From an uncultured Candidatus Saccharibacteria bacterium (GTDB taxonomy: Bacteria; Patescibacteriota; Doudnabacteria; UBA920): DNA of 64,000 nt. The translations under genes and the position numbers were made by a program. The stretch is taken from assembly GCA_964504715.1 (NCBI GenBank), contig CAZDEP010000004.1:8542-72541 (forward strand), given 5' to 3'. Each line of letters starts with the position of its first letter. Within the stretch, counting starts at the first letter, position 1. The notes under the pieces were generated by a model that was not told the DNA's origin, ran no database searches, and saw only the letters and a list, made by a program, of their open reading frames with translations. Positions 11,882 through 33,897 of this stretch are shown piece after piece.

Positions 11882-11905
11882 CCTGAAATTTTTGTGGGTT
11901 TTCAC

Positions 11906-11932
11906 ACTTAGCCCCTTACTAAGGGGCTAAGT
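11906..11932 (+). terminator. perfect 12-bp stem hairpin after the capsid gene
   Basis: acttagcccctt-act-aaggggctaagt. Confidence 0.4.
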
Positions 11933-11965
11933 AGAAAGCTTAGAATTAATTTAGAAAGGATATAT

Positions 11966-12184: not shown

Positions 12185-12197
12185 AACGTAAAAATCT

Positions 12198-12530: not shown

Positions 12531-12532
12531 AT

Positions 12533-13678: not shown

Positions 13679-13680
13679 TT

Positions 13681-14091: not shown

Positions 14092-14263
14092 CATTAGACT
14101 CATGAAGAATAAAAATACCAACGACAATTTACCCGACTTGGAATTTAACTTCCCTCTTGAAGGGGTGGTTATTAAAGCCAAAACTTTGGAAGAAGCCCAA
14201 AGCGAATTAGCCAGGCGCAAAAGTCAAAGGTCTGAACCAATTAACGACGAAGGAGAATAATTT

Positions 14264-15256: not shown

Positions 15257-15260
15257 AAAT

Positions 15261-15641: not shown

Positions 15642-15844
15642 TCGTTGAATATCGCACCTTCTTAAGAAATGGCGGAGGTAAGTTGCCGGAACAGTTAATC
15701 ATGGCAATGGTTTGCGAAAAAATGGGCTGGACATTGGAGCAATACCTGTGCCAGCCCGTTTGGTTTATAAAGACGTTGCTGCTTAAAATGAATTTAGACG
15801 CAGAGCATTCGGAAGAATTAAATAAACAATATGGCTCAAAGTAA
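15261..15844 (+). CDS. tail assembly chaperone GT fusion made by -1 programmed frameshift at 15629-15635
   Basis: -1 frame stays open for 69 codons (NLIVEYRTFLRNGGGK...NKQYGSK) and ends at 15844, overlapping the tape measure start. Confidence 0.5.
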
Positions 15845-17534
15845 TTTGGAAATCGTAATAAAAGCCCAGGACGAGGCATCGGATAAGCTTAAAGGTATTG
15901 CCGAAAGCGCAAAAGGTATGGGCATAGCGTTTACGGCCGTGGGAGCGGTAATAACCGGGTCTTTGGCTTTTGCCATTAAGGCGGCCAGCGATGCCCAGAT
16001 TCAAATGCAGGGCGTTGATACCGTGCTTAATGCCATGAAAAGCAGCGCGCAGGATGCGGCCGCCAAGGTGCAGGTAAACGGCAATGAAATGAAATTGAGC
16101 GCGCTTAAGGCGCAGGAGTTGCAGCTCAAAATAGCGGAAATTGAAAAGGGATATAAAAAGAACAAGGACGCTTTGGATGACAACACCGATTCGATGGACA
16201 AAAATGCCGTCAAACTGGCCGAATATAAAATACAGCTCGAGGCTTTAAACGCCAAACAAGAACAACAGCAAAATCTGTTAAAGCTCGCCACGGGCAACTT
16301 TGATATATATAGAGAGACTATCGTTAAGGCGGGCAAGGCGGCTTTACAGTTGGGCTTTGACGATGAGGAGGCCAGTCTAAGTATTACCAAATTATTCCAG
16401 CGCACCGGCGATTTAAATCAAGCCATTAAACTGAATAGTCTGGCAATGGATTTGGCTCGCAGCAAGCACATGGACTTGTCTACCGCCAGCAATTTGGTAG
16501 GCATGGTTTTAAGCGGCAACTCACGCGTGTTAAAACAATACGGCATTGATATCAAAGATTCGGCCACGGCCGGAGAGGCTTTGCAAGAACTCCAAGTCAG
16601 ACTGAAGGGATCGGTGCAGGATTACGCACAGACTTTTGCGGGTCAAAGCGCGGTGCTCAAGGAAAAACTTTCCAACATAGTTGAGGAAATCGGGGGCAAG
16701 CTTTTGCCCGTATTAACCCAGTTGCTTGAACGCATCGCACCCATTGTCGACAAAATTGTTGACTGGATGGGCAAGCATGAAAAACTTACCACTGTTCTAA
16801 TCATCGGAGTCGGGGCTTTGGGTTTGTTGCTTGCGGTTTTGGGACCATTGCTGATTGCACTTCCTGCCATAGTCGCGGGCATTCAAGCGGTCGGAGCGGC
16901 CATGATGTTTTTGGCAGCTAATCCCATTATCTTAATCATTGGCGCCATCATCGCCTTAATTGCCGTGATTGTTTTAATGATCACCCACTGGCAACAGACC
17001 AAGGTTATAGCTTTGCAAGTTTGGAATGAAATTAAGGAAGTCGTGGGCGGCGCCATGGAAACCGTGAAGAATTACATCGACGCGGGCATGACGTATATTC
17101 AAACCGCCTGGATGGAAGTTTGGACGGCGATTAAGGATTACGTTATCGGCATTTGGCAGGAAATTGTCGATAAAATTACCGGTTTTGTAAACGGAATAAT
17201 GGACAAAGTTAACAGCGTCAAAAACGCTATTAGTAGTGTTGCCAGCTCGGTTGGCGGGGCTATTAGTAGTGCGGGTAATAAGATTGGCAATGCGTTTGGC
17301 GGGGGCAAAGCTTCTGGAGGTTCGGTATTCGGCGGTTCCACCTATCTGGTGGGAGAACAGGGACCCGAATTATTCACGCCCTCCTCTTCCGGAATGATAG
17401 TTCCAAATCATGCTTTGGGCGGTGCGGTCTTTAATATCAATTTTTCCGGAAATACTTTTATGGGAGATCGAGACGTGGCAAGAAAGATTGGAAAGGAGTT
17501 GGTGAATTACTTAAAATTAAATGTTAGGGTTTAA
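15831..17534 (+). CDS. tail tape measure protein
   Basis: 567 aa; coiled-coil N-terminus, hydrophobic central segment, Gly-rich C-terminus. Confidence 0.75.
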   Translation: MAQSNLEIVIKAQDEASDKLKGIAESAKGMGIAFTAVGAVITGSLAFAIKAASDAQIQMQGVDTVLNAMKSSAQDAAAKVQVNGNEMKLSALKAQELQLKIAEIEKGYKKNKDALDDNTDSMDKNAVKLAEYKIQLEALNAKQEQQQNLLKLATGNFDIYRETIVKAGKAALQLGFDDEEASLSITKLFQRTGDLNQAIKLNSLAMDLARSKHMDLSTASNLVGMVLSGNSRVLKQYGIDIKDSATAGEALQELQVRLKGSVQDYAQTFAGQSAVLKEKLSNIVEEIGGKLLPVLTQLLERIAPIVDKIVDWMGKHEKLTTVLIIGVGALGLLLAVLGPLLIALPAIVAGIQAVGAAMMFLAANPIILIIGAIIALIAVIVLMITHWQQTKVIALQVWNEIKEVVGGAMETVKNYIDAGMTYIQTAWMEVWTAIKDYVIGIWQEIVDKITGFVNGIMDKVNSVKNAISSVASSVGGAISSAGNKIGNAFGGGKASGGSVFGGSTYLVGEQGPELFTPSSSGMIVPNHALGGAVFNINFSGNTFMGDRDVARKIGKELVNYLKLNVRV

Positions 17535-19042
17535 TGATAACCGTTGAAATAAAAAAATTGGGAGAGGTCGTATTTACCGACCGCACTACATCGGTAATAT
17601 GGGACAGCTTGAAGATCAGGCAGGCTTTGACCAAAGAGGTGGACTCCTGCAATTTCAACATGGAAAAATACGGGAGTAAAACATTTAAACCGGACGAAGA
17701 AGACGAGATCGTAATAAAGCAAGATGGAATAAAAATCTTTGCCGGTTTTCTTGTCAGGGTCAGGGAAACTTTGACTCCCAACTTAGTGCTTTCATACGAA
17801 TGTGAAGCCAAAGATTATACCCATCTGCTAAATCGCAAATTGGTGAATAAAACTTACAGCAACCAAACCGAACTGCAAATCATTACCGATATTAAGAATA
17901 CTTTCTCCGCAGCCGGTATCACCGTTGCTAATGTTGACGGAGCCAATGTCATTGAGAACATTACTTTTAATAATGTGGATCCGTCGGCGGCTTTGCAAAA
18001 ACTGGCGGAAATTTTCAACAAAGATTGGTATATCGATTACGACAAGGATATCCATTACTTTTCCAAAGAAGCTAACGTCGCGCCGTTTAGTTTGAGCGAT
18101 GCCAACGGAAATTACATATTGGAAAGTTTGGAAATTACCACAGATACGACGCAGATTAAAAACAGCGTATTTGTGGAAGGAGGGCAGGAATTGAGCGGCA
18201 CGGTCTTTACCGAAAAATTCGTGGCCGATGGCACGCAGCATACCTTTTCCGTCAGCTATCAATATGCCAACCTTATATTGAAACTCAACGGCGTGACGAA
18301 AACCGTCGGCATCGACGGCACCGATGATTTTACCGGCAAGGACGCGCTATATAATTTTGAGAATTTTTCTTTAAGATTTAATCCTTTATCTCCCCCGGCC
18401 AATGGCACGGTAATTGAGTTTGGCGGCAATTTCTATTTTCCCATTAAGACTCTTGTCAGGGAAAGCACGTCAATTACCAAGTATGGCGAAAAGCAATTCC
18501 AAATTATTGACAGCAATATTAAAAATCGCGACGTAGCCAAGAAAAGGGCGCAGGCGGAAATCTATGCCTACGCGGCAAATCTTAACGAAGGAGGTTTTGA
18601 AACTTATACGTCGGGTCTTCGCGCAGGTCAACGTCTTTTAATTCAGTCGGACATCAGGTCTTTGAGTGATTATTACTTAATCAATAATTTGGAAGCCTCA
18701 ATGTTTAATCCGAGCAAAATTATTTGGAAAGCGACATTGGTGAGCGTGAAAACTTTTGACGTCATGGACTTGTTGGCCAAGATTGTCGACAAAAGTAACT
18801 TGCAGACCGGCACGGATGAAATAGTTAAGACCGCGGAGATTGTATTGCGAAGCGTGCAGGTGAGCAGGAATATCCAAATTCAAACCCCGCAGTCAAAAGC
18901 AAGGATAGTCCAACTGACCCGGCTTTTTTTAAGCTATATTGATAACCCGCCCGTCTGGGTGGCCGGACCCTATAATCCCACTTCCCTAAGCGACCGCAAA
19001 AGACCGGCTTTTGCCGATCGGGGTTGTCTTTTAGGCAGTTAA
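17534..19042 (+). CDS. distal tail / tail component protein
   Basis: Position after the tape measure. Confidence 0.45.
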   Translation: MITVEIKKLGEVVFTDRTTSVIWDSLKIRQALTKEVDSCNFNMEKYGSKTFKPDEEDEIVIKQDGIKIFAGFLVRVRETLTPNLVLSYECEAKDYTHLLNRKLVNKTYSNQTELQIITDIKNTFSAAGITVANVDGANVIENITFNNVDPSAALQKLAEIFNKDWYIDYDKDIHYFSKEANVAPFSLSDANGNYILESLEITTDTTQIKNSVFVEGGQELSGTVFTEKFVADGTQHTFSVSYQYANLILKLNGVTKTVGIDGTDDFTGKDALYNFENFSLRFNPLSPPANGTVIEFGGNFYFPIKTLVRESTSITKYGEKQFQIIDSNIKNRDVAKKRAQAEIYAYAANLNEGGFETYTSGLRAGQRLLIQSDIRSLSDYYLINNLEASMFNPSKIIWKATLVSVKTFDVMDLLAKIVDKSNLQTGTDEIVKTAEIVLRSVQVSRNIQIQTPQSKARIVQLTRLFLSYIDNPPVWVAGPYNPTSLSDRKRPAFADRGCLLGS

Positions 19043-19044
19043 TT

Positions 19045-19053
19045 TGCTATAAT
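19045..19053 (+). promoter_or_regulatory. extended -10 promoter (TGcTATAAT) with conserved leader and U-tract (19068-19140)
   Basis: Exact TGnTATAAT; leader shares aactttaa / tacgggctt / cgggagta / U-run with the 7482-7546 and 9761-9840 copies. Confidence 0.45.
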
Positions 19054-19142
19054 ATAGATAATAAATCAATAACTTTAAGGATTTACGGATCCTATTTCCA
19101 AAAGCATACGGGCTTTTCGGGAGTAGGGTCTTTTTTGTTTTT

Positions 19143-19706
19143 ATGGACATAAAAGCTGAAGAAAAATTCATTAAACGTATTGGCTGGATTACCAAGTATA
19201 ACTGGGAAAAGCTAAAACTCATTCCTAATTGGCGTGACTATTTTGACGTGAGTAAAATCTCCCCGCAAAAAAGGTTTGAAATATTTGGAGGCATTCCCGG
19301 ATTGATTGAAGGGCAGCAATTGTTTGAAAACCTAACTCCGACTGTTGGCTTTCAGCAACTTTGCAAAGCCATGAGTGGCAATATTTCCACGATTGCGGAG
19401 ATCGGAGTTAATTATCACGCCATGGGCACGGGCACGAATTCTCCGGCTGCCGGTGATATTCAATTACAAACCGAGAGCACCAGAAAACTTTTAGCTTCAA
19501 AGACTTATTCAAACAACAAAGCTTTTTATACCGCTTTCTATGCAGCTACCGAGGCTGTGGGAACTTTCACTGAAATCGGTTTGTTCATAAACGGATCGGC
19601 TACTGTCAACTCCGGCGTGATATGGGACAGGTCGCTGCTTTCGATTATTAAATCCAACACACAGACCTTAACAATTGATTACGAGGATACGTTCATTAAC
19701 GGATAA
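19143..19706 (+). CDS. tail protein (hypothetical)
   Basis: ORF between tail genes. Confidence 0.3.
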   Translation: MDIKAEEKFIKRIGWITKYNWEKLKLIPNWRDYFDVSKISPQKRFEIFGGIPGLIEGQQLFENLTPTVGFQQLCKAMSGNISTIAEIGVNYHAMGTGTNSPAAGDIQLQTESTRKLLASKTYSNNKAFYTAFYAATEAVGTFTEIGLFINGSATVNSGVIWDRSLLSIIKSNTQTLTIDYEDTFING

Positions 19707-19709
19707 TCT

Positions 19710-21095
19710 ATGCCTAATTGGAATGCCGGTGACGAAGTCACCTCTGCCAAACTCAATAAATCTCTGGCGGGACTGGCAGCTTCAGCCCAGGCTACGCCAG
19801 ATATGACCTTGAAAGTTAACGAGGGCGTGGTCAGGTTTGGCAAAAGCGAAGTTCGTTTTAGTGGCGGTGACTCTCCGAGCTTCACCGCACCCGGATCCAA
19901 TAACCGGATTGACCTGTTAGTAATCAATTCCAGCGGCATTCTAGAAATTATTCAAGGCACGGCCGCCACTTCTCCCTCGGTTCCTGCTTACCCTTCCACT
20001 AAGTTTGTCATTACCGAAGTTTATCTGAGAGCTGGAGCAACCAGTATAAAAAATATCGATGATTCTACTAATGGGTATATCTATAAGGATGCCAGGGCGT
20101 ATGCGGTATTGCTTGATAAATTCGGCGGCGATGGCAGCGACGGAGCGTTAAGTATTTCTTCCGGCACGACCACGATTAATTTAGGTGATGCGGCAATTGT
20201 CGTTAAAAACTATTCTTCCATAGCCATTACCGGCAGCGGCAAGTTGGCTTTCAGTAATCCTCATGCCGGTGGAACTTTAGTGGTCTTAAGGTCGCAAGGA
20301 AACGTCGACATTACTTCTTCCACCGTTCCGTGCATTGACTTAAAGGGCATAGGAGCCACTGATAGCACCACTCCAAATTTCTTTGTAGGAACGGTTACGG
20401 TTTACGGCGGTGTTCCCACGGGCGGGGTAATTTGGGACAGAGCCAGTTCGTATACGCCCTATACCAGCGGCGGAGTTTCATTGGTTACTAGAACTATTTG
20501 TCTTGCTCCGGGTGCCGCTGGATCAACTGGCGGAGGCGGATCAGCCGGTGCGCCAGGCGGCACGACTGGGCGTGGCGGTGGCGGGATGCTCATCGAGTGC
20601 GGTGGCGCATGGAATTTTACCGTTACCAATGGAATCGATATTTCCGGACAAGATGGCGGCAATGGAGTAAGCGGTAACGGATATAATGGCGGACTGAATT
20701 CTACGGGACCCGGTGGCGGAGGGGGCGGTAATTGCGGCATGTTCTTAGCACTTTATAATTATCTAACGACGAATACCGGCACTATAAAAGCTGCGGGAGG
20801 TAAAGGCGGAGATGGCGGCGGAGCCGGTGGATCTTGGAATTTTGGAGCAGCCGGAGCCTCTGGAGGCGGAGGCGCAGGATCAATGGAAGGCGCGGGAGGT
20901 AATGGAGCGACGGGAAGCGGAACGACCACTCCCCCCAACGGCAGTGTCGGTTCCGGAAACGGATCCGGCAGCGGAGGGGGCGCAGGGGCTGGATTTAACT
21001 GGGGCACTAGCAATTTTACCGGACCCAGTTCCGGCGGCGCAGCCACTTCAACTTCCACCAAACATTCTTTAATCACTAAAAACAATTATTTTTAA
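19710..21095 (+). CDS. tail fiber protein, Gly-rich (collagen- or silk-like repeats)
   Basis: N-terminus MPNWNAGDEVTSAKLN is shared with the second fiber; long GGxGG runs. Confidence 0.55.
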   Translation: MPNWNAGDEVTSAKLNKSLAGLAASAQATPDMTLKVNEGVVRFGKSEVRFSGGDSPSFTAPGSNNRIDLLVINSSGILEIIQGTAATSPSVPAYPSTKFVITEVYLRAGATSIKNIDDSTNGYIYKDARAYAVLLDKFGGDGSDGALSISSGTTTINLGDAAIVVKNYSSIAITGSGKLAFSNPHAGGTLVVLRSQGNVDITSSTVPCIDLKGIGATDSTTPNFFVGTVTVYGGVPTGGVIWDRASSYTPYTSGGVSLVTRTICLAPGAAGSTGGGGSAGAPGGTTGRGGGGMLIECGGAWNFTVTNGIDISGQDGGNGVSGNGYNGGLNSTGPGGGGGGNCGMFLALYNYLTTNTGTIKAAGGKGGDGGGAGGSWNFGAAGASGGGGAGSMEGAGGNGATGSGTTTPPNGSVGSGNGSGSGGGAGAGFNWGTSNFTGPSSGGAATSTSTKHSLITKNNYF

Positions 21096-21250
21096 ATCTA
21101 TGCTCAAAAGAATTCAACTGCCAAGCGGCGCAATCGAATATGTCGATACAAACCCTAACCTGATTAAAACTACAGGCAAAAAAGCCAAAGGTCTGATTAA
21201 AATGATGACATCTAAGATCGTCAAGACTTTAAAATTAAGTAAATAACTTT

Positions 21251-21622
21251 ATGACCATTAACGAAATAGTAAATTACGCTGGATCAATCGGCATCTTTGT
21301 TTTTGCCATTGGTTATTTGGTAGCGCAATACAAAAAAGGTGGCAATGAAGGCAATGTGGAAGTCATCAAGCTTTTACGCGAGCAGATGGAAGGCTTAAAA
21401 CTGGTGGTTTACGAAAACCAACAGGAAGTTAAACGGCTTTCGGATGAAATTATAAAGCTGAAGACTTTGGGAGAAGAAAAAGATAAAAAGATTAAAGAGC
21501 TTACGGAGCTTTTACAGAACAAAGATCCACGACTGCAAACTTTCATGAAAGATACTACGGATATTTTAACTGAGATCAAAAACTTTATGCATAATATTAA
21601 CCAAAATTTTGAAAGGAAATAA
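21251..21622 (+). CDS. membrane-anchored coiled-coil protein (lysis accessory or holin-like)
   Basis: Single N-terminal TM helix, then coiled-coil. Confidence 0.3.
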   Translation: MTINEIVNYAGSIGIFVFAIGYLVAQYKKGGNEGNVEVIKLLREQMEGLKLVVYENQQEVKRLSDEIIKLKTLGEEKDKKIKELTELLQNKDPRLQTFMKDTTDILTEIKNFMHNINQNFERK

Positions 21623-21624
21623 CT

Positions 21625-22632
21625 ATGGACGAATTACAACCACAATTTAATACCGGTATCTTAATTAAAGATCCCGAGCCAACGGATTATATAAAGGGAA
21701 CTAATTCTCCGATTGTCGCAGAAAAGGTCAACCCTTCGGGCGACTGGTCGCCTTATATTTCCACTCCCGAGGATCAGTTCGATCCAAAGCATGTCTACGA
21801 CACTATGAACTGCACCGGCTTTTCTTTTACCAACGTGGTGGAGATGTGGATGAATTTTTACATTCAGTCGGGACGAATGCCGGTCGACCATATGCAATTC
21901 TTGAAGGATAACGGCTACTTGGATCAATACGGCAAGGTCGATTTGTCCGAGCGGGCTTTAGGGGTTATGGCTGGCACCGGATCCAATGGCAATTATCTGC
22001 AAACCGTGGCTCAGGCCGCAAGGACATACGGCCTTGCTCCCAATACAGCTTGGCCATGGGATTGGGATAAGGTTTCAAACATTAAAGAATATTACGCTCC
22101 TCTTCCGGACAGTGTTTGGGAAATTGCTGCAAAGTTTAGGGATTACTTTGAGATTCAGTATCACTGGTTCTTTGCGGGGATTAACGCCGTTCCCGACGCT
22201 TTAAAGGAATCGCCTTTGTGGGTTGCGCTTTGCACCTGCCCTGGTTGGGGCAATCCTCCAGTGCCGTGGTGCGGAGTGTCTGAAGCCAATCATGCGGTAA
22301 GTCTGATTAAGGAAGATTTAAAAACTAACCCTCTTATTCTCGATCATTACAAACCTTACATTAAACAATTAGCATTAAACTACGTGATACCTTGGCTTAT
22401 GCAGGTATTCGTGGCAATAAAGGACACAAAAGAAATGATAACTTTGCAAAAGACCCCGGACGGAACGTTCTATTTAAATCTGAACGGCAAATCCAGCATT
22501 GGCATTGGTGATATGAATGCCGCGCAAATCTTTTCCGATGCCGGGATCATGCCGGAAGACGTGCCAAGCGTGCCAACCCAAACCCATACCTTGGCCAGTG
22601 GCATCATCTTGCACAAGGTCGATAAGAAGTAA
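21625..22632 (+). CDS. putative cell-wall hydrolase, papain-like (C39-like) Cys/His peptidase fold; candidate endolysin
   Basis: NCTGFSF (Cys) and ANHAVSL (His) spaced as in C39/CHAP-like peptidases; adjacent to a holin. Confidence 0.4.
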   Translation: MDELQPQFNTGILIKDPEPTDYIKGTNSPIVAEKVNPSGDWSPYISTPEDQFDPKHVYDTMNCTGFSFTNVVEMWMNFYIQSGRMPVDHMQFLKDNGYLDQYGKVDLSERALGVMAGTGSNGNYLQTVAQAARTYGLAPNTAWPWDWDKVSNIKEYYAPLPDSVWEIAAKFRDYFEIQYHWFFAGINAVPDALKESPLWVALCTCPGWGNPPVPWCGVSEANHAVSLIKEDLKTNPLILDHYKPYIKQLALNYVIPWLMQVFVAIKDTKEMITLQKTPDGTFYLNLNGKSSIGIGDMNAAQIFSDAGIMPEDVPSVPTQTHTLASGIILHKVDKK

Positions 22633-22980: not shown

Positions 22981-25086
22981 ATGCATAATTGGGTTGCCGG
23001 TGAAGAGGTCACCGCTACAAAACTTAATGAGCTGAATCCGGAAGCTGACACCCGTATTAGCAAAACCGAACACAATATCCTTGAACTCTATTTGGAGAAT
23101 TATTTTGCCAGCAAGAATACTCCTTTTCAAGGCTTATTTTTCGATGGCTTTTCCGATGCCAGCAAAGCCCAAACCGGCACTGGCAATATCGCCAGCGTGG
23201 CGGTAAGTGGCCAGCCCAACGTGCCTTTGGCCAATCAGGCGGAAATCGATTTGTTTCCGCCCGGGTCTTTGGTGGAGATTTATGACGGAAGCAACAGGGA
23301 GAGCAACGTGGCGGCAGGATCCACGACCGGACCCGTAACCGATTTTACCAGCGCGGATTGCAAGGCTGCCGACGGCTTTGCCTATAGTGAACAGGATGGG
23401 CAGGGTTTTTGGTTTGACGACGGCGTGGTTTCCGGCAAGCGCAGGGTCAGGAGAACCGGTAATGGCGGCTGGGGATCCGGCGGCGATGGAGGGTTTTTCA
23501 CCAAAACCATGGCTGTGGTCAACGGCGCAACTTACCGCATTCAGGTCACCTGCAATTGGAACTTTCCTGACAGCCAGGCTGCCAAAATTCAGTTAGTAGT
23601 AGATGGAGTGGTCAAGCAGCAAAAAGATCCTTTGGGCGACGCCGCCAACGGCTATGCCACTACCGGCGCCATTACCTTTGACGTTAATGCGGTTGCCTCC
23701 GGTTCAAGCATGAGCATAGCTTTAAAAGCCTCACAAAACAGTAATTTCGGGACGGGGAATGAAGATAGGGCGGATTGGTCTAACTTTTCCGTGACGCACA
23801 CGGGGTATTTGCTCATCATGCAGAATAACTTGGCGAGCAGCTACGCCCAAGGCGGATTTGTAAAATACACCACGGCCACCATAGACACCTCTAATAAACG
23901 TTTAGCCATGACATCCGGAGTCGGCGATCTAAAAAGAGTTATTTACCAAAGTGTGGACAGCGTATTTACTCAATTGATGGCCAGCGCATACTTATGGATA
24001 ATGAGAAAGGTCACGACCAAGTTTCATCCGAACAGTTCCGTGGCTCAAAGCGCCAACCAAGTTACCGTTACGGGACCTTCGGGGACTTTTACCATTGGCG
24101 ACATCATAGATATTTATATTGCGAATAAAACGATCAGGGAAAGAAAGGCGGTCAGTAATGTTTCGGAAGCGGGAGGAGGAGGCAATGTTGGTTTTGATAC
24201 TACTACCGGTATAAATACCACTAGCACGGTCTTTACTTATGCCCATAATGTGGCAAATCAATCTAATCGTTACTTAGTGGTTTTCGTAGACGCAAATAGC
24301 TCCGCTCCTTCGGGTGCAACTTATAATGGAATAGCTTTAACTAAAGTAGCCGAACAAAACGTAGGCGCGACTGGAAGAAACACTAGTCTTTGGGTTCTCG
24401 CTAACCCTGCTATTGGGAACAATAACGTGGTGGTAACTTTTGGTAGTTCCCATGACGCCAATATTAGAAGCTATAGCCTTTATAATGCTTCAGGCGTGGG
24501 AACACCATATACTACTGATTATTCCGTAAATAATAATTACAACCCCACTCTTACAGGAATGAGTGGCGGGATGATACTGGATTTTCTCCGCATGTGGGGT
24601 GACCCGGGTGGTAGCGTGGTTGCTAATAACGGCCAGACCAGAGATTTCGGTGGAGCGGGCGGAACCGACTTAAAAACTTATCACAATACGGTTCCCGGAT
24701 CCATTGTCAGCTCTTATAGTTGGCCGACCAGCAGCGGACACTACGCAGCCAGTATTTGCGTTCTGCCGACGATTCCCGATATAACGTTAACGTTTTCTCC
24801 AGCGATCCAAAAGTCGGGAGGCTTTGTCACTACTGACTGGGTAGAAAGGGTTGATGTATTGCCAAAGATTAGCATTACGGGCAATAGTGAGGCTAGAAAT
24901 TTTGTAGCACCTGCTTTCCAAAACTCCATGGACGTATTGGTAGACACGGAAATTTACACCGAAGACGAATATAATTATACTCCGGCAACGCCGAAAGAAA
25001 CGGTTAAAATATATTTGGAAATAACCAGAGGTGATACCACACTTAATCCTTACGCTAAGCGCTTGGGAGTATCTTTGAATACTTGA
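22981..25086 (+). CDS. tail fiber / host-specificity protein
   Basis: N-terminus MHNWVAGEEVTATKLN is paralogous to the 19710 fiber; 701 aa, beta-rich. Confidence 0.55.
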   Translation: MHNWVAGEEVTATKLNELNPEADTRISKTEHNILELYLENYFASKNTPFQGLFFDGFSDASKAQTGTGNIASVAVSGQPNVPLANQAEIDLFPPGSLVEIYDGSNRESNVAAGSTTGPVTDFTSADCKAADGFAYSEQDGQGFWFDDGVVSGKRRVRRTGNGGWGSGGDGGFFTKTMAVVNGATYRIQVTCNWNFPDSQAAKIQLVVDGVVKQQKDPLGDAANGYATTGAITFDVNAVASGSSMSIALKASQNSNFGTGNEDRADWSNFSVTHTGYLLIMQNNLASSYAQGGFVKYTTATIDTSNKRLAMTSGVGDLKRVIYQSVDSVFTQLMASAYLWIMRKVTTKFHPNSSVAQSANQVTVTGPSGTFTIGDIIDIYIANKTIRERKAVSNVSEAGGGGNVGFDTTTGINTTSTVFTYAHNVANQSNRYLVVFVDANSSAPSGATYNGIALTKVAEQNVGATGRNTSLWVLANPAIGNNNVVVTFGSSHDANIRSYSLYNASGVGTPYTTDYSVNNNYNPTLTGMSGGMILDFLRMWGDPGGSVVANNGQTRDFGGAGGTDLKTYHNTVPGSIVSSYSWPTSSGHYAASICVLPTIPDITLTFSPAIQKSGGFVTTDWVERVDVLPKISITGNSEARNFVAPAFQNSMDVLVDTEIYTEDEYNYTPATPKETVKIYLEITRGDTTLNPYAKRLGVSLNT

Positions 25087-25111
25087 GGGATTTAGCTTTT
25101 GTGCGAAAAAT

Positions 25112-25120
25112 TGCTATAAT
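25112..25120 (+). promoter_or_regulatory. extended -10 promoter (TGcTATAAT) upstream of the AlbA_2/HATPase gene
   Basis: Exact TGnTATAAT 32 nt before the ATG. Confidence 0.4.
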
Positions 25121-25151
25121 TACACTAACTTTATAAAAAATTATAGCTTTT

Positions 25152-26615
25152 ATGGATATACAAAAATTCTTAGAGGAAGTTTTGGCTATACCCAACGAGT
25201 CAAGGACTTTTGAGTTTAAGCGCCTTGGCAGCAGAAACGAAGGATTGGATAAAACTCTGCAAGCTATTGTCGCCATGGCCAATACAGATGGCGGCACTAT
25301 TGTGCTTGGCATTGATGATCCGCAAAAATCAAAGCTAAAAGGTTTTGATCGGATTTTTGGCATTGAGGAAAATCCAGAATTGTATGACGAACTTGGTCAA
25401 AATGTAAAAAAGATTTCTCCTCCCATTGCCTCAATTTGGCCCCCGGAGTTAATCCAAGTTCCAGGAAAGAACGTCAGGATCGGGTGGCTATCAGTGCCCA
25501 AAGTTACGGATGGGTTCAGGTCTATCGACAACCATGTTTACGTTAGGCAAGAAAGAGGTAATAAACGATTATCTCCTCAAGAGATTGTTCACTTTGCTTA
25601 TGTCAAAGGTTTTGAGCGAGCTGATGCTGAAGCAGTCGAAGTTAGTATTGATTTACTGAAAACCAGCTATTACGAAGCTTGGCGGAAGAAACGCGGTATT
25701 GAGGAAGATTCCATCAGCATAATTTTAGAAAAAACTGGATTGGCAAAAAGAAACGACAAAGGTGTTATTTTACCGACTCGAGCCGCAGTATTACTCTTTG
25801 CCGACTATCCGAATGACTTAATGCACACAAAATGCACCGTTCGCGTCTTTCAATACGCCGGTAACCTGGAAACCATAAAGGAAACTTTAAACCTTGTTGG
25901 CACCCCCAAGACAATTGACGGACCTATTGTTAAGCTAATCAAAGACGCTCACGAATATGTGCTTACTCTTTTAAGAACCGGCATGAAAGTGCCGTCTGGG
26001 TTTGTGACCCAATATCAAATTCCGGAAAGAGCAGTTAAAGAAGCGATCACAAATGCCGTCATCCACCGCGATTACCATACAAAAAAAGATATTGAAATTA
26101 GAATTTTTGAGGATCGTGTTGAGATTGAAAGCCCAGGACTTTTGCCGTTTAACATTACACCGTCGAACATTGGTATTGTAAGGGCTCATGGTTATCGCAA
26201 CGATCTTATAGTCAAACATTTACGGGAATTTCCTGATCCTCCCAACCTTGACCAAAATGAGGGTATTAGAGCAATGCGCCAGACCATGACCGAAGCCAAA
26301 TTGTATCCGCCAATTTTCCTGACGTATCCATACATGCAAGACTCGCTCAAGGTTGTGCTCTTTAATGAAAAAGCACCATCAGAATGGGACAAGGTTTCGC
26401 ATCATCTTAATGAGCATAAATACATCACCAACAAAGAAGCCCGTTCGATCATTGGTATTCAAAGCGAAGTTAAGATGTCAAAATTGTTCAATAAGTGGGT
26501 GAAAAAAAATTTGTTGATCAAAATAGTGCCAAGGACGGGGGCAAAACGCAACATAAGCTACCGTCTGCCAACGGCCGACGAAAAGGGTTTATTTACCCCT
26601 GACAAAGGTAAATAA
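25152..26615 (+). CDS. Schlafen-like AlbA_2 DNA-binding domain + HATPase_c_4 domain protein (RecG-C-terminal-like 'ATP-binding' family)
   Basis: N-terminal FEFKRLGS...LQAIVAMANTDGGTIVLGIDD (AlbA_2); C-terminal ITNAVIHRDY...IESPGLLP (HATPase_c_4). Confidence 0.6.
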   Translation: MDIQKFLEEVLAIPNESRTFEFKRLGSRNEGLDKTLQAIVAMANTDGGTIVLGIDDPQKSKLKGFDRIFGIEENPELYDELGQNVKKISPPIASIWPPELIQVPGKNVRIGWLSVPKVTDGFRSIDNHVYVRQERGNKRLSPQEIVHFAYVKGFERADAEAVEVSIDLLKTSYYEAWRKKRGIEEDSISIILEKTGLAKRNDKGVILPTRAAVLLFADYPNDLMHTKCTVRVFQYAGNLETIKETLNLVGTPKTIDGPIVKLIKDAHEYVLTLLRTGMKVPSGFVTQYQIPERAVKEAITNAVIHRDYHTKKDIEIRIFEDRVEIESPGLLPFNITPSNIGIVRAHGYRNDLIVKHLREFPDPPNLDQNEGIRAMRQTMTEAKLYPPIFLTYPYMQDSLKVVLFNEKAPSEWDKVSHHLNEHKYITNKEARSIIGIQSEVKMSKLFNKWVKKNLLIKIVPRTGAKRNISYRLPTADEKGLFTPDKGK

Positions 26616-26962: not shown

Positions 26963-29671
26963 ATGGCCCTTTCTTGGAATGAGATAAAATCCCGCGCTGT
27001 GGTATTTTCCAAAGAGTGGGAAAATGAAACCCGCGAAGAAGCCGAAGCCAAAACTTTTTGGGATGGCTTTTTCAACGTCTTTGGCATGACTCGCAAACGT
27101 CTTGCTGCTTTTGAACATTATGTTAAACTGCGAGGCGGAGACCAGGGCTTTATAGATCTTTTCTGGCCAGGCACGTTATTGGTAGAGCATAAATCCAAAG
27201 GCAAAGATTTAGCCAAGGCGTATACGCAAGCCATTGATTATTTCCCTGGCCTGTTGGAGAAAGACTTGCCAAAATACATTTTAACCTCTGACTTTTCGCG
27301 TTTCCGGCTCCATGATATGGAAACCGGAAAGGAAACCGATTTTGACTTAAAAGATTTGAGTAAACATGTGAATTTGTTTGCTTTTATTGCCGGTTATGAA
27401 AAGCAACACATTCGCGAGGAAGATCCGGCCAACAGACAGGCAGCCGAACGCATGGCAGGTCTCCATGACAGCTTATTCGAAGCTGGATACAGCGGACATC
27501 AACTCGAAGTCTTTTTAGTGCGTATCCTGTTCTGCTTGTTTGCAGACGATACCGGCATTTTTCCCATCAAGAATCAATTTTACGACTATATTGAATGGAA
27601 GCCTAAAGAAGATGGATCAGACTTTGGTCTGTATTTACAAGGCTTGTTTGATGTTTTAAACACCCCTGTAGAAAAGCGGCAAGCAAACTTAGACGAAGAT
27701 TTAAAATCTTTTCCTTATGTAAACGGCGGACTGTTCGCCGAAACCTTACCAACCGTTTCTTTTAATAGCGCTATCCGCAAGGCTTTCTTAAAATGCTGTG
27801 ATTTTGACTGGTCACAAATTTCCCCGGCTATATTCGGTTCCATGTTCCAAGGGGTAATGGACAAAAAAGAACGCCGGGCTTTGGGAGCGCACTATACTTC
27901 GGAAACCAACATCTTAAAACTGATTAAGCCATTATTTTTAGACGAACTGTGGGCGGAATTTGAAACGGTAAAACATAACCATCAAAAGCTGCAAATTTTC
28001 CAAAGGAAAATTGCCAGCTTAAAATTTTTAGACCCAGCCTGTGGTTGTGGCAACTTTTTGGTAATTGCTTACCGTGAACTGCGCCTTTTGGAGCTGGAAA
28101 TTTTAAAGTTAATGTATGGACCTGGCAAGTCAATTTTAAAGTGGAATATCCAGACCATTACCCAAGTCAGTCCCGAACAGTTCTATGGCATAGAAATTGG
28201 AGAGTTTGCAGGGCGTATTGCCGAAACCGCAATGTGGCTCGTCGACCACCAAATGAACCAAAAAGCCAGTGAAGCTTTGGGACAATACTTTGTTCGTTTG
28301 CCTTTGGACAAAGCCGCGCATATAAAGTTTGGTAATGCTTTAACTACCGACTGGAAGGAAATTATACCGCCTGATGAGTTGAGCTATATTTTGGGTAATC
28401 CTCCTTTTGTCGGGTCAAAGCTTATGACTGAACAGCAGCGGGCGGAAATTGTGGATGTATTTAACAATGCGAAGGGTGTGGGTGTGCTGGACTATGTTTC
28501 GGGTTGGTATATAAAAGCGGCCAAATACATACAGGGCACGCAAATTAAATGCGCTTTTGTCTCTACAAATTCCATTACCCAAGGTGAGCAGGTCGGGATT
28601 CTGTGGAATGAACTGCTTAATAAATATGGTATTAAAATTCATTTTGCCCATAAGACTTTTAAGTGGAGCAATGAAGCAGCTGGTAAAGCAGCGGTTTATT
28701 GTGTGATTGTTGGTTTTGCGAATTTTGATGTCAATAAAAAATCTCTTTATGAATATGAAAATATAAAAGGAGTGCCACACGAAGTTACTGTAAAAAATAT
28801 CAATCCTTACTTAGTGGCTGCTGATGACATTATTATTGATAAAAGAAGTAAGCCAATTTCAAAAGTTCCTGGTATGGTCTTTGGGAGCATGCCTAACGAT
28901 GATGGTAATTTATTACTGGACAATCAGCAAAAAGTTGAACTGCTTTCTGTCGAACCTAACGCTGCAAAATTTATAAAGCCTTTCATCAGTGCGAAGGAAT
29001 TTTTAAATCGCCAGACGCGGTGGTGTTTATGGTTGGTGGATGCTAAACCTGAAGAGATAAAGTCCATGCCTGCAATTTTGCAAAGAGTCCAAAATATAAG
29101 AGATTATCGGCAAAAAAGTAAAAGAAAAACGACTGTTGAATTAGCAAATAAACCGGCTCTGTTTGGTGAAAATCATCAACCTGATTCTGAATATATTTTA
29201 GTGCCCCGTGTATCCTCTGAAAATCGCAAATATATACCTATGGGGTTCTTTACTAAGGAAAGCATAGTTGGCGACACTTGCATGAGCATTCCTGGAGCCA
29301 CTTTATATCACTTTGGGGTGCTGGAAAGCGAAATGCATATGGCTTGGGTGCGGTATGTATGTGGACGGCTTAAAAGTGATTACCGTTATTCCAAGGATAT
29401 TGTCTATAACAACTTTCCGTGGCCAAAAGATCCAAGTCCTGAGAAAATGCAAGCTATTGAGCAGGCAGCACAACAGGTTATAGATATCCGGCAAAAATAT
29501 CCCAATAGCTCCTTGGCTGATTTATACGACCCGCTCACAATGCCAGCTGATTTGGTTAAGGCACACGAAGAATTAAACCGCGCAGTTGACGCCACCTACA
29601 GCCGCCGCACCTTCAAATCCGAAGCCGAACGGATGGAGTTTTTATTTGAATTGTATAAAAACCATGAATGA
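26963..29671 (+). CDS. MmeI-family Type IIL (IIG) restriction-modification enzyme (endonuclease + N6-adenine MTase + TRD in one polypeptide)
   Basis: N-terminus MALSWNEIKSRAVVFSKEWEN...GFIDLFWPGTLLVEHKSKGKDL is strikingly MmeI-like, with the D...E.K nuclease residues; MTase motif I FLDPACGCGNFLV and motif IV GNPPFVGSK. Confidence 0.85.
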   Translation: MALSWNEIKSRAVVFSKEWENETREEAEAKTFWDGFFNVFGMTRKRLAAFEHYVKLRGGDQGFIDLFWPGTLLVEHKSKGKDLAKAYTQAIDYFPGLLEKDLPKYILTSDFSRFRLHDMETGKETDFDLKDLSKHVNLFAFIAGYEKQHIREEDPANRQAAERMAGLHDSLFEAGYSGHQLEVFLVRILFCLFADDTGIFPIKNQFYDYIEWKPKEDGSDFGLYLQGLFDVLNTPVEKRQANLDEDLKSFPYVNGGLFAETLPTVSFNSAIRKAFLKCCDFDWSQISPAIFGSMFQGVMDKKERRALGAHYTSETNILKLIKPLFLDELWAEFETVKHNHQKLQIFQRKIASLKFLDPACGCGNFLVIAYRELRLLELEILKLMYGPGKSILKWNIQTITQVSPEQFYGIEIGEFAGRIAETAMWLVDHQMNQKASEALGQYFVRLPLDKAAHIKFGNALTTDWKEIIPPDELSYILGNPPFVGSKLMTEQQRAEIVDVFNNAKGVGVLDYVSGWYIKAAKYIQGTQIKCAFVSTNSITQGEQVGILWNELLNKYGIKIHFAHKTFKWSNEAAGKAAVYCVIVGFANFDVNKKSLYEYENIKGVPHEVTVKNINPYLVAADDIIIDKRSKPISKVPGMVFGSMPNDDGNLLLDNQQKVELLSVEPNAAKFIKPFISAKEFLNRQTRWCLWLVDAKPEEIKSMPAILQRVQNIRDYRQKSKRKTTVELANKPALFGENHQPDSEYILVPRVSSENRKYIPMGFFTKESIVGDTCMSIPGATLYHFGVLESEMHMAWVRYVCGRLKSDYRYSKDIVYNNFPWPKDPSPEKMQAIEQAAQQVIDIRQKYPNSSLADLYDPLTMPADLVKAHEELNRAVDATYSRRTFKSEAERMEFLFELYKNHE

Positions 29672-30239
29672 TCCAATTCTTAAAGAAAAAGAGTCTGTAG
29701 AAGTTGGCCCTGCCACAGAAACTCCCTATAAAAAGGGGTTGTATGTATTGGGTTATAGCGATGAGCAAATAGAAGAATTGGGGGCTTTTTTTAATGAAGT
29801 ATTCGAAAAGATGCGAAATGCTCACTCGATGCAAGTTACAAGAAATGGACTAAGTTTTTTTCAAGGTGCAATATTCGCATTAGGTTCAAAAGAGTTGGGA
29901 AACGTAGAATGGAAAGAACACTGTGCTTCATCAATTCGAGAAGTGTTTCATGAATGGTGGGGTAATGGAAAAGAGTTTAATAGTGATTTTAGGGACTTTT
30001 TTCCAAAAAGCCCATCTGCTGATACCACTGAAACTTATAAAAATTTAAAGCTGGCATATCAATACTTTTCTGGCATTGCCCACCACAATGCATCTGGTAT
30101 AATAGGTTCTTTATCCGCTTTAAAAAAAGATCAAAGTCTAAAATTAGAGGACTGTTATACCGACGATATATTTCTGGGGACCTTAAAAACTCATTTTGCT
30201 GATTTGAATAAGTTAATCGAATATTCCCGTCTTACGTAA
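29664..30239 (+). CDS. hypothetical protein translationally coupled (ATGAATGA overlap) to the MmeI-like gene; start revised to the ATG at 29664
   Basis: 191 aa; no recognisable motif; stop TAA is directly followed by the ATG of the next gene. Confidence 0.4.
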   Translation: MNDPILKEKESVEVGPATETPYKKGLYVLGYSDEQIEELGAFFNEVFEKMRNAHSMQVTRNGLSFFQGAIFALGSKELGNVEWKEHCASSIREVFHEWWGNGKEFNSDFRDFFPKSPSADTTETYKNLKLAYQYFSGIAHHNASGIIGSLSALKKDQSLKLEDCYTDDIFLGTLKTHFADLNKLIEYSRLT

Positions 30240-33218
30240 ATGAACCAAATAGAATTACATAATAAAATTGACACTTTAATACAAAGCGGGCATCAGGCCA
30301 CTACTGTTGCCACGGTTTTGGAAATTATAAAAACCAATTCTGACGCACGATTGTATTTTTATACAAAAGCCGACGAGCTATGGCTGGATTGGCTGTGGCA
30401 AAATAACTTTTTGGATCCTGTTAAAGCTAAAGTAGTAGAAACTGATCGTTATTCTTACAGCACACCGGAGCTTGGCTACCTCGTCCGCATGGTAGAAAAA
30501 AAACCAAAAGAAGTTACAGATATTATTTTGCAGGTGTCTATTTCAAAAGAACATTTTAACCCGGAAGTAGTAGACAGATTTTTATGGATTGCAAGATCCC
30601 TTCCGGCTGACCAGACTGCAAGGATAGCCAATAAAATTCGTGACGAACAGTGGCCAAAGCTCATGTGGCGATTCAATCGCTGGGGATTTGAATATGAGCA
30701 AATGTTTAAAAAACTTTCCGAAGCCAAAGACTACGATAGCCTACTTGCTATTGCCGAAGCCGTATTGGCTGTAAAGACAAAAGAAGACGAAACCGAAGGA
30801 GTCAAGCGCATGAGTTTAGACTCACCTTTTTATTTAGACCACTTGGCCGAAACTAAGGTGTTTCAGTATTTCGTTTCTGTTGACGATTTACATGTAGAAC
30901 AAGCATTGGCTTTGGCAACCGAAGTAATGGGTAATGCTTTTAACAGAGGAGAAAAAGCGAATAGTGACGAAATTTTCCCAATTAGGGACACTTTCTACTT
31001 ATCACATGTTGATTTTTTTACCCTTGAACTTGAGGAGGGTAGACACATTTCTTATAGGGAAGATGTGCGAGATTTAGCGGCCGTCGCCAAGCTACTTATT
31101 ACCAAGGCTGTGGAAATAAAAAAAGGAGATGGAAAAGCAATAAGCAATTTATATGAAAAATACATCAAAACTCTACCAGACAGCCAGACTATGTGGAGAT
31201 TTCGGATGTATGTTTTGAGTTTGGCACCGGAAATGTTTAAGGATGAATTAAAGTCGGCTTTCTTTAGAATTTTCAGAGAAGATGACAAGCCATGGGCATT
31301 GATTTATGCGGAATACGAGAGGGCTGTTTATGCTGGCTTTGCAACATTAGAAGAATCAGAAAAACGTGATTATGTGTCACGGGTCTTAAGCTATTTTGGC
31401 GACAGAATGGGTGAAGATGCAGACTTGTGGAAGCATCACGGCTGGCAGATTCTGTCCGGCATTGTTGATCAGTTAACAGACGAAGAGAAAAAACAAGCAG
31501 AACAAAAATTTGGAAAAACGTTAGATGATAAATACGAACCCGAGCCGGCCGTCAAGTATGATGGATTTGCAAGAACTATAGTTTCGCAGCCACCTGTAAC
31601 AGCTGAAGAATTAGCAGGAATGCCAATACTAGATATCGTTGCAAAGTTAAAGGATGATTGGTCACCACAGGCCCTTGCAGAAAAATATAAAGATGAGCCT
31701 TTTCACCGGCCGATTGACGCTGACGGAGTCGGTCAGCTTATTAAGAGTGACATGGCTAACCGGCTGCAGGAGTATCTAAACGACGCCCCTCTTTTCTTTG
31801 ATAGGGAGTCGTTGGATTCGGATTATACCTATGCTTTTTTGCGAGGCATTGAGCAGATATTACGAGATAAAAAAAATACAAGCCAACTGGACTGGAAAGG
31901 TCTATTAGAAATGTATAAGCAGATAGTCCAGTCTGGCAAAGAAACTCAATTTGAGCCTAAAGCCAGGAAACGCGAATTCTCTACCTCCTGGCTGGCCAGC
32001 TGGGCGGCAGTCCATAGTGTTATGGGCGACGTTTTAGAGGAACTCCTAAAAGGAGAGGAAAGACCAATTATAGATTTTTCTCTATACAGAAATGATATTT
32101 TGGATATTATTGATTATTTGTTTTTATATCCAGATCCCAAGCGGGAAGATGAAACACCGGATCGCGGTGATCTGTTTACCGTGGCTATCAACTCTGTAAG
32201 GGGTAAGGCCTTTGAAGCCTTGGTTGCATTTATTTATCAAGACGGAAAACAATATCCTAAGGAAGCTAAGGTAAAAATCTCTGCGGATGTTAAAAAAGTA
32301 TACGAGAGATTGCTCACTCAAGAAAATGCCTTATCAGTCATGTTCTTATTTGGACATTATTTACCGTCATTTATGTTTCGGGACGAAGATTGGATTTTAA
32401 GTTTAATACCCAAGGTTTTTCCCGAAGAGACAGAAAAGAAAGATTTATATCTTGCCGCATGGGAGGGTTATCTGGCTAATAATCTTTACAAGGAAATATT
32501 TGAAAAATTTGACTTTCTCTACCAACGAGCTATTAATTTTGATTCAGCACAATACACCGATAGAAAATACTTCAAGGAAATTGACGAAGGCTTGGCCATA
32601 CACCTAGCCCTTGCTTATATACATTTCCCGGGCTTTGGTTTAAATAACCAGTTGTTCGTCAACTTTTGGAAGAAAGAAAACCCGAAACGGCACGAGGCGT
32701 TTATTGCCTTTGTTGGCAGGCATGCCTTATCCAGAGAAAGTGGTCAAGACAAAGAAGTTGAGCTTAAAAGATTAGAAAATTTGTGGGATTGGGTTTTAGA
32801 AAACGTCACAGATAACGAAGCATTAAAAGGATTTGGGCATTGGATAAATCCGAATAAAAGAGTATTTGAAAATAAATGGTTAGTTGAGCATATCCGCAAA
32901 ACTTTAGAAAAAACCAAAGGTGATATCGAGTGGGAATACGGGTTAATGCATGCCTTACCAGGGCTGGCTAAAACAGAACCGCAAGATTCTTTCAAAATTT
33001 TGAAGCTCTATATGCTGGATGCAGAAAAATTTGGTATTCAAAACCACGCTTCTATTTATGTTGATAGCGAAATCTTGGAAACGCTAAAAATTCTCCATGC
33101 CAATCCAGATACTAAAAAACAAATTTATGACCTTATTAATGAATTGTTATTAAAAGGCAGTCAAAGATTCTGGAAATTAAAAGAGGTATTGGGTTTAGAA
33201 ACTAATTCAAGTTTGTAA
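30240..33218 (+). CDS. large (992 aa) predicted all-alpha/helical-repeat protein of unknown function
   Basis: No nucleotide-binding or catalytic motif recognised; 0-nt gap from the upstream gene and 4-nt gap to the SRAP gene. Confidence 0.4.
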   Translation: MNQIELHNKIDTLIQSGHQATTVATVLEIIKTNSDARLYFYTKADELWLDWLWQNNFLDPVKAKVVETDRYSYSTPELGYLVRMVEKKPKEVTDIILQVSISKEHFNPEVVDRFLWIARSLPADQTARIANKIRDEQWPKLMWRFNRWGFEYEQMFKKLSEAKDYDSLLAIAEAVLAVKTKEDETEGVKRMSLDSPFYLDHLAETKVFQYFVSVDDLHVEQALALATEVMGNAFNRGEKANSDEIFPIRDTFYLSHVDFFTLELEEGRHISYREDVRDLAAVAKLLITKAVEIKKGDGKAISNLYEKYIKTLPDSQTMWRFRMYVLSLAPEMFKDELKSAFFRIFREDDKPWALIYAEYERAVYAGFATLEESEKRDYVSRVLSYFGDRMGEDADLWKHHGWQILSGIVDQLTDEEKKQAEQKFGKTLDDKYEPEPAVKYDGFARTIVSQPPVTAEELAGMPILDIVAKLKDDWSPQALAEKYKDEPFHRPIDADGVGQLIKSDMANRLQEYLNDAPLFFDRESLDSDYTYAFLRGIEQILRDKKNTSQLDWKGLLEMYKQIVQSGKETQFEPKARKREFSTSWLASWAAVHSVMGDVLEELLKGEERPIIDFSLYRNDILDIIDYLFLYPDPKREDETPDRGDLFTVAINSVRGKAFEALVAFIYQDGKQYPKEAKVKISADVKKVYERLLTQENALSVMFLFGHYLPSFMFRDEDWILSLIPKVFPEETEKKDLYLAAWEGYLANNLYKEIFEKFDFLYQRAINFDSAQYTDRKYFKEIDEGLAIHLALAYIHFPGFGLNNQLFVNFWKKENPKRHEAFIAFVGRHALSRESGQDKEVELKRLENLWDWVLENVTDNEALKGFGHWINPNKRVFENKWLVEHIRKTLEKTKGDIEWEYGLMHALPGLAKTEPQDSFKILKLYMLDAEKFGIQNHASIYVDSEILETLKILHANPDTKKQIYDLINELLLKGSQRFWKLKEVLGLETNSSL

Positions 33219-33222
33219 TTCT

Positions 33223-33867
33223 ATGTGCGGAGCGTATTCTCTTTCAACTGATTTTGGTAAACTCGCAAAGCGGTTTAAGGCTAAACCGCCGAAGGTTTCG
33301 TATCCTAAAAGATACAACATCCGGCCGAGCCAGCCGCTTGTGGCTATTTTAAATACGAATCCAGAGCAGATGGTTTTAGCCCAATGGGGCATTATTCCCT
33401 TTTGGGATAAGACCGGTAAAAAACAAATAATCAATGCCCGCAAGGACAGTTTAGAAAAACCAACTTTTAAGCAGTCGTTCCATGAACGCCGCTGTTTAAT
33501 TTTGACCGATGGTTTTTATGAATGGAAAGCAGTGCCAGGGGAGAAAACCAAAATACCATATCGCTTTACCTTAAAATCAGAAGAGCCATTCGCTTTTGCC
33601 GGTATTTGGCAGGAAGATGCCGAGGATCCGCATGTTGTTATTATTACCACGGACCCTAACAAAATAGTTGAGTCAATCCATAATCGCATGCCCGCAATTC
33701 TTAAACCAGAATTTGAGCAGGATTGGTTAAATCCGGATTTGCAAGATGAGCAAATTCTGGAATTGCTACAGCCGTATCCGGATAAAGAAATGAAAGACTA
33801 TGCCATATCTACTTTAGTGAATTTACCAAGGAATGATAGTTTAGAAATTATTAAACCCCAGCTTTAA
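33223..33867 (+). CDS. SOS-response-associated peptidase (SRAP / YedK-HMCES family, abasic-site DNA-protein crosslinking)
   Basis: N-terminal MCGAY (catalytic Cys2), conserved E and H positions. Confidence 0.8.
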   Translation: MCGAYSLSTDFGKLAKRFKAKPPKVSYPKRYNIRPSQPLVAILNTNPEQMVLAQWGIIPFWDKTGKKQIINARKDSLEKPTFKQSFHERRCLILTDGFYEWKAVPGEKTKIPYRFTLKSEEPFAFAGIWQEDAEDPHVVIITTDPNKIVESIHNRMPAILKPEFEQDWLNPDLQDEQILELLQPYPDKEMKDYAISTLVNLPRNDSLEIIKPQL

Positions 33868-33877
33868 ACTGGGGTTT
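33853..33877. terminator. bidirectional hairpin between convergent genes
   Basis: aaaccccag-ctttaaa-ctggggttt. Confidence 0.45.
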
Positions 33878-33897
33878 AGGTTTACCAAAAGTTAGAA

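Follow-up and report, generated by a model that had tools for sequence, protein, structure and literature searches.

The gene array

A 64,000-nucleotide stretch of DNA from an uncultured Candidatus Saccharibacteria bacterium (assembly GCA_964504715.1, contig CAZDEP010000004.1, positions 8,542 to 72,541; hereafter the window) contains two adjoining genes encoding proteins of 191 and 992 amino acids, the relationships and likely role of which are reported here. The pair is part of an array of four genes on the forward strand. The first (26963..29671) encodes a 902-residue MmeI-family type IIL/IIG restriction-modification (RM) enzyme, an operon neighbour that is not a conserved partner of the pair. 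It is followed by the gene for the small partner protein (29664..30239), the gene for a large HEAT/ARM-like alpha-solenoid protein predicted to be a sensor or scaffold (30240..33218), and an SRAP gene of the YedK/HMCES type (33223..33867) with an open reading frame (ORF) of 214 residues matching Pfam SRAP at 8e-58. The junctions given in a preliminary description of this DNA agree with both the ORF map and the sequence. The 3' end of the MmeI gene reads ...ACC ATG AAT GA with the TGA at 29669-29671; thus, the ATG at 29664 that opens the 191-residue frame overlaps the stop codon. The frame terminates at the TAA of 30237-30239 and is adjoined, with zero gap, by the ATG at 30240 of the 992-residue ORF, 4 nt past the end of which the SRAP ORF begins (33218 to 33223). 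An alternative start of the small gene, TTG at 29646 with GGAG located 7 nt upstream, yields 197 residues, the length at which a protein 98% identical to the small protein (P0121) was called. The gene may start at this TTG, and it overlaps the MmeI gene with either start. A perfect palindromic hairpin with a 12-bp stem (TAAACCCCAGCTTTAAACTGGGGTTTA, 33852..33878, no strand) overlaps the end of the SRAP gene and is likely the end of the transcription unit, serving as a bidirectional terminator. The SRAP gene is probably co-transcribed with the array but lies outside the conserved module. The preliminary description had also called the array unusually tight; however, 16 of the 48 same-strand neighbour pairs in the window have gaps of ≤10 nt. 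Close spacing is thus habitual in this genome, so that on its own it is weak evidence and was rejected as an argument in itself.

The MmeI protein was matched by the five Pfam domains MmeI_N, hel, Mtase, TRD and C at 2e-25 to 2e-93, and over its full length by the PADLOC model REase_MTase_IIG with 1240 bits, whereas PglX scored ≤23 bits. The domains follow the MmeI-type layout of nuclease, helical spacer, gamma-class N6-adenine methyltransferase, target recognition and C-terminal domains in a single chain, and the motifs D-X9-E-X-K and NPPF can both be read in the translated sequence. The predicted enzyme looks complete on its own. No PglZ, BrxC or BrxL was found in the ten genes around the array, in agreement with the preliminary description and ruling out a BREX-like system.

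The two proteins form one conserved unit

Homologs of the large protein fall into two length groups, one of ~1000 and one of ~1150-1210 residues, and the ~180 residues by which the long forms are extended at the N-terminus correspond in alignments to the 191-residue protein. A scan of one genome per species yielded 80 loci, 81 with the window. The small-protein domain was detected by iterative profile searches in 60 of the 81, either fused N-terminally to the large protein or encoded in the adjoining upstream ORF on the same strand. Among the 75 full-length loci, 37 have the split pair as in the window and 19 the fused form. An FRG domain (PADLOC candidate PDC-S15, 3e-18) precedes the small domain in 4. 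The partner is a small transmembrane protein in 8 loci, a CHAT protease in 2, and in a further 2 a protein with an LmuA-like nuclease N-terminus (5e-13) plus a shorter relative of its C-terminal part; the partner in 3 loci is unclear. In a rough neighbour-joining tree built from the large protein, members of the different classes are scattered among one another, a distribution indicating that fusion, fission and exchange of partners have each occurred repeatedly. The C-terminal parts of the transmembrane and LmuA-like partners gave weak collinear profile matches to the small domain (26-28% probability), which is only suggestive of a relationship; the link is made plausible by the existence of proteins combining a transmembrane helix with the domain and an intact motif. 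In the closest relatives of the small protein the pair is retained, the stop codon of one gene overlapping or abutting the start codon of the next, and is accompanied by neither MmeI nor SRAP. Fusion in many relatives, together with conservation across phyla, supports the conclusion that the two proteins are a functional pair. In two proteins, P0192 (1313 residues) and P0220 (1293 residues), the small domain is duplicated in tandem ahead of the large protein.

The large protein contains a Dsr1-type sensor region

Neither protein had a match in Pfam or NCBIfam or a hit to SIR2, and comparison of both proteins and the family profile with PDB sequences returned nothing meaningful. No P-loop, NACHT or AAA match was obtained for either protein in Pfam, NCBIfam or PADLOC, evidence against a nucleoside triphosphatase (NTPase). 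AlphaFold2 confidently models the large protein as an all-alpha solenoid, with a predicted local distance difference test score of 88 and a predicted template modelling score of 0.64, bearing out the all-alpha helical repeat expected from the letters alone. Comparison of the model with PDB structures revealed resemblance only to generic HEAT/ARM proteins.

The sole PADLOC match of the large protein was to the Dsr1 model (E = 2.2e-29), aligning residues 481-973 (31680-33158, forward strand) with positions 754-1213 of the 1227-position profile. The same model, and no other, was matched by 34 of the 44 members of the large-protein family. A tblastn search with the C-terminal half identified two plasmid-borne relatives, a 789-residue hypothetical protein of Legionella and a 1510-residue haloarchaeal protein annotated as ATP-binding, which match the PADLOC Dsr1 profile at positions 469-1214 and 417-1213 respectively. 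When the family profile was aligned with the Legionella protein by hhalign, the homology extended over residues 356-978 of the large protein (31305..33173, forward strand) with 99.5% probability and E = 1.7e-22. The preliminary description had recognised no motif in either protein, and this holds for Pfam, NCBIfam and the PDB but not for PADLOC.

The Legionella protein consists of the sensor only and is encoded (L081, 3773-7290; plasmid NZ_CP016871.1) directly after an IS3 transposase gene, with IS256 copies flanking; it may be the product of a Dsr1-type gene with the N-terminus truncated by insertion of an insertion sequence. The haloarchaeal protein (L082, 2560-7092; Natronorubrum plasmid NZ_CP031308.1) has the Dsr1-type sensor at residues 652-1498 and an N-terminal region matching the PADLOC candidate PDC-M54A, and is probably an archaeal Avs7-like protein. 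Its annotation as ATP-binding indicates that the Dsr1-type sensor also occurs in longer proteins of the ATPase type.

The large protein has 186 detectable relatives with 40-50% identity over the full length, and the family comprises about 190 clusters. Relatives carry the source name hypothetical protein or none. They derive mainly from Patescibacteria and also from Omnitrophota, Elusimicrobiota and others. The species-level scan likewise gave a patchy spread over several phyla, among them Patescibacteria, Chloroflexota, Nitrospirota and Omnitrophota. No homolog of the large protein was found by tblastn in 50,697 GenBank phage records.

The small protein is a helical bundle with a conserved Arg/His-His motif

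The small protein is an all-alpha helical bundle, the counterpart of the N-terminal domain of the fused homologs, in which no enzymatic fold was detected. In relatives sharing only 14-20% identity, no variation is seen at R92 and H140 and almost none at A69, A88, S90 and E93. Among the closer standalone homologs the invariant residues are G68, A69, N80, S90, R92, E93, H140 and H141, the last two forming a His-His motif (AHH). Assignment to HEPN was ruled out since there is no Rx4-6H motif. The only Pfam family matched by more than one of the 46 small-protein members was PF18165 (pP_pnuc_1, a predicted pPIWI-associating nuclease), to which 19 of the 46 gave sub-threshold matches, the best at 9.6e-6. 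These matches cover positions ~2-44 of 133, the first third of the profile, and include the conserved helix containing the arginine. The best family member reached 25 bits against a gathering score of 26.3, with none above it, and the protein of the window gave no match to PF18165 at E <= 1. No pPIWI gene lies nearby, and the nuclease activity of PF18165 is itself a prediction only.

When 1.84 billion representative proteins were searched with a profile of the small domain, 329 hits were obtained. Among the matches listed, at least 104 are standalone, at least 49 are fused to the large protein, at least 7 are fused to FRG and approximately 20 have an N-terminal extension; a hydropathy scan identified a transmembrane helix in 8 of the 18 extensions examined. 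Since no further architecture occurs among the matches listed, the small domain appears specific to this system.

Restriction-modification genes lie upstream of the module

In order to place the module in its genomic context, the two genes upstream of it in other loci (86 proteins) were compared with Pfam. The matches were dominated by methyltransferases and other RM components: N6_Mtase in 13 proteins, Eco57I in 12, N6_N4_Mtase, TaqI_C and MmeI_Mtase in 8 each, ResIII in 5 and DpnII in 2, with additional HaeII and GmrSD neighbours. The two downstream genes (78 proteins) gave N6_Mtase in 1, ResIII in 2 and Mrr_cat in 2, the remainder having unrelated functions. Of the 60 loci in which the upstream sequence extends for 3 kb or more, 23 had, according to local profiles, a methyltransferase or Res helicase within three genes upstream; on the downstream side the count was 2 of 59 (Fisher p = 2e-6). 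Most of the upstream RM genes are on the same strand and nearly abut the module, and all three IMG/VR contigs with the module have the RM-upstream arrangement. These results support a non-random placement of the module downstream of RM genes. The RM systems concerned are unrelated, comprising single-chain type IIG enzymes (MmeI/Eco57I-like), type III Mod-Res, a PLD-SNF2 helicase with a methyltransferase, type II and type IV, and in ~60% of the loci whose upstream sequence is long enough, the nearest three genes include no RM gene. Since the RM types vary and most loci are without RM, the linkage is read as piggy-backing on operons, or layered defence, and not as an obligate partnership.

Judged by sequence, MmeI is confined to the window apart from a weak occurrence in L012, and its role as an obligate partner was therefore rejected. 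The suggestion in the preliminary description of an accessory pair specific to MmeI is not sustained in view of the several RM types upstream, the majority of loci devoid of RM and the apparent completeness of the MmeI homolog. SRAP was absent from all 78 downstream neighbours in other loci and is ruled out as part of the system, contrary to its inclusion in the four-gene array. The conservation of neighbourhood raised in the same description is thus found with neither MmeI nor SRAP, but with RM genes of several types and on the upstream side.

A recurrent arrangement directly upstream of the module is a PLD and SNF2 helicase (~1100 residues, with DrmD and HKD+Snf2 matches) followed by an Eco57I/TaqI_C methyltransferase (~1000-1180 residues), present in L007 (2407-9518), L051 (1980-8875), L056 (2833-9474), L064 (3194-9525) and likewise L083. 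An AbiU2-type HEPN protein is encoded between the methyltransferase and the module in L051 (8881-9528). A Cap15-like CBASS effector gene adjoins the module in L002 (2794-3384), and in L088 a Shedu (SduA_C) gene (4931-6160) is located by the module and next to a serine recombinase gene. Serine or tyrosine recombinases were found within 10 kb of the module in ~19 loci.

The array is located in a prophage

The window carries a Caudoviricetes-type prophage at 3900-22600 and 42567-43736, a setting missing from the preliminary description. Its genes include those for the terminase large subunit (5643-7001), prohead protease (9853-10743), HK97-like major capsid protein (10760-11881), tail tube (14264-15256), a tape-measure-like protein (15831-17534) and a tyrosine integrase (42567-43736). 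The defence array sits between the tail genes and the integrase. Just 5' of the MmeI gene, at 22981-26615, are two further candidate defence genes, one encoding a 701-residue protein without a family match and the other a 487-residue Schlafen AlbA_2 and HATPase_c_4 protein with partial matches to PADLOC pAgo-associated models. Prophages are common carriers of defence genes, and the prophage of the window was counted in favour of a role in defence.

Comparison with known systems

A recent paper (PMC13581612, Nature 2026) demonstrated anti-phage activity of EcDsr1 triggered by the phage major capsid protein, and a Dsr1-type sensor that binds this protein, with death of the cell on activation. 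According to the same paper the sensor domain is common to Avs7 and other proteins with diverse N-terminal effectors, which include nucleases, transmembrane segments, a HEPN-like domain and unknown domains, in a superfamily catalogue of 9,097 proteins (PMC13581612). The preprint of this paper reports that disruption of the N-terminal effector domain abolishes both toxicity and defence (PMC12803255). The family described here resembles Dsr1 in the homologous large alpha-helical sensor region, in the position of the partner N-terminal to the sensor, in the lack of an NTPase, and in the size of the fused relatives, which are single chains of ~1150-1200 residues compared with the 1227-position profile. 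It differs in that no SIR2 NADase is found in the family and a ~170-residue helical bundle with the Arg/His-His motif occupies its place. It differs further in that the two parts are separate genes in the window, in that the first ~350 residues of the large protein are left unaligned with Dsr1, and in a distribution centred on Patescibacteria and other uncultured lineages. As in the Avs7/Dsr1-sensor superfamily, one sensor is combined with interchangeable partners (Arg/His-His domain, transmembrane protein, FRG, CHAT and LmuA-like nuclease); unlike Avs7, the family is without a STAND NTPase. The sensors of Avs7 and Dsr1 are bilobed and sharply bent, and the large protein is modelled as a confident alpha-solenoid. 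The split two-gene form, the 191-residue domain and the polar linkage to RM genes are absent from the Dsr1 section of PMC13581612 and from the results of a term search of that paper.

The arrangement also recalls PrrC-EcoprrI and other RM-linked genes of the abortive-infection (Abi) type, in which the Abi gene lies inside an RM locus and shares its transcript, so that two layers of defence result. PrrC is an ABC-ATPase with a HEPN anticodon nuclease and is physically dependent on its type Ic RM partner. PrrC and the pair are unrelated in sequence, and the RM genes upstream of the pair are of various types and missing from most loci.

Interpretation and alternative explanations

Sensor homology, partner swapping and the neighbouring defence and mobile-element genes make a role of the pair as a defence module very probable. 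The reading that we consider likely is that it is a split, non-SIR2 abortive-infection module of the Dsr1/Avs7-sensor class, borne by a prophage at the 3' end of an MmeI-type RM operon. Since the pair fits the Dsr1-sensor architecture, with the effector position taken by a separate gene for an effector of unknown activity, the following mechanism is proposed. The 992-residue alpha-solenoid would sense a structural protein of the phage, which in characterised relatives is the major capsid protein, and the 191-residue protein would fill the position held by the SIR2 effector in Dsr1. The small protein would be translated separately, with termination and reinitiation at TAAATG, and would dock on the N-terminal third of the large protein, which is conserved and specific to the family. 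Binding of the phage trigger may then change the conformation of the complex or cause it to oligomerise, releasing an activity of the small protein, possibly cleavage of nucleic acid by the invariant Arg/His-His site, with the result that phage replication is stopped or the cell is killed. The module would be autonomous and, by recurrently joining RM operons, would provide them with a second tier of defence. The novel defence pair of the preliminary description is upheld to the extent that the proteins are a functional pair with hallmarks of defence, but the sensor region belongs to the known Dsr1/Avs7 class.

Several results weigh against this assignment. The region shared with Dsr1-like proteins is only 22-24% identical to them, and for this reason the phage trigger may differ from that of Dsr1. 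The alignment to Dsr1-type sensors is limited to the C-terminal ~620 residues of the large protein, the N-terminal ~350 being specific to the family. Finally, the transmembrane- and FRG-bearing versions of the small domain retain the Arg/His-His motif, which would fit a basal effector or signalling domain.

The upstream position of the RM genes, on the same strand and often with stop and start codons overlapping or abutting those of the module, as in the three IMG/VR contigs, could also reflect an accessory or guard that works only with the upstream RM enzyme, monitoring its integrity or acting on its cleavage products. The model for such a guard is PrrC, which is held latent by EcoprrI. We regard this explanation as unlikely, since the three genes upstream include no RM gene in the majority of loci, since two of the three closest relatives examined lack one directly upstream on the same strand, and since the upstream systems (type IIG MmeI/Eco57I-like, type III, PLD-SNF2 helicase with methyltransferase, HaeII and GmrSD) are unrelated, making a specific protein-protein dependency on all of them improbable. 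Moreover, the sensor region is homologous to a domain that was shown to bind a phage protein directly (PMC13581612).

The failure to detect an enzymatic fold in the small protein leads to a different proposal, in which the large protein by itself makes up the functional unit, serving as scaffold or decoy, and the small protein is only a regulator, adaptor or antitoxin-like inhibitor, with killing supplied in trans or only in the variants with transmembrane, CHAT or nuclease partners. The weak collinear profile matches would then reflect a shared docking domain to which effectors were added N-terminally, as the forms combining the domain with a transmembrane helix or FRG also suggest. However, the conservation of R92, H140, H141, S90 and E93 exceeds that usual for a docking surface, and the motif is lost precisely in the divergent transmembrane and LmuA-like classes, which bear another effector. 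The 37 split and 19 fused loci have no other candidate effector, and the partial matches of 19 small-protein members touch a predicted nuclease family. We find this proposal quite doubtful. A function outside defence, with the pair as a helical-repeat chaperone, scaffold or phage counter-defence factor of housekeeping or phage benefit in a variable region, is in accord with the prophage location and with the many functions of HEAT-like solenoids. It is very improbable in view of the patchy family, the effector-type exchange of partners, the specific homology to a defence sensor, the absence of homologs from the phage records searched and the RM, Shedu, Cap15, AbiU2 and recombinase genes among the neighbours.

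Implications

There is a small chance that the module is a functional extension of RM, in which a Dsr1-type sensor is combined with an undescribed helical Arg/His-His effector fold whose activity is conditioned on, or synergistic with, the RM enzyme. If so, the module would have been recruited repeatedly to the 3' ends of type IIG, type III and helicase-methyltransferase operons and would fire as a back-up when restriction fails, for example against phages escaping by methylation or anti-restriction, constituting a new RM-coupled abortive-infection architecture prevalent in Patescibacteria.

Under the preferred assignment to a split, autonomous module of the Dsr1/Avs7-sensor class, the sensor class is already known, while the family, the small domain, the distribution among lineages and the linkage to RM are undescribed in the papers searched or read. 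The results provide a testable identity for a family named hypothetical protein and lacking a Pfam or NCBIfam model. They would extend the Dsr1/Avs7 class of capsid sensors to a split two-gene form, to a new small effector or adaptor domain and to phyla beyond the model organisms. If the Arg/His-His bundle is catalytic, it would represent a new effector fold. The upstream-only linkage to unrelated RM types suggests that RM operons are landing pads or functional partners for abortive-infection modules.

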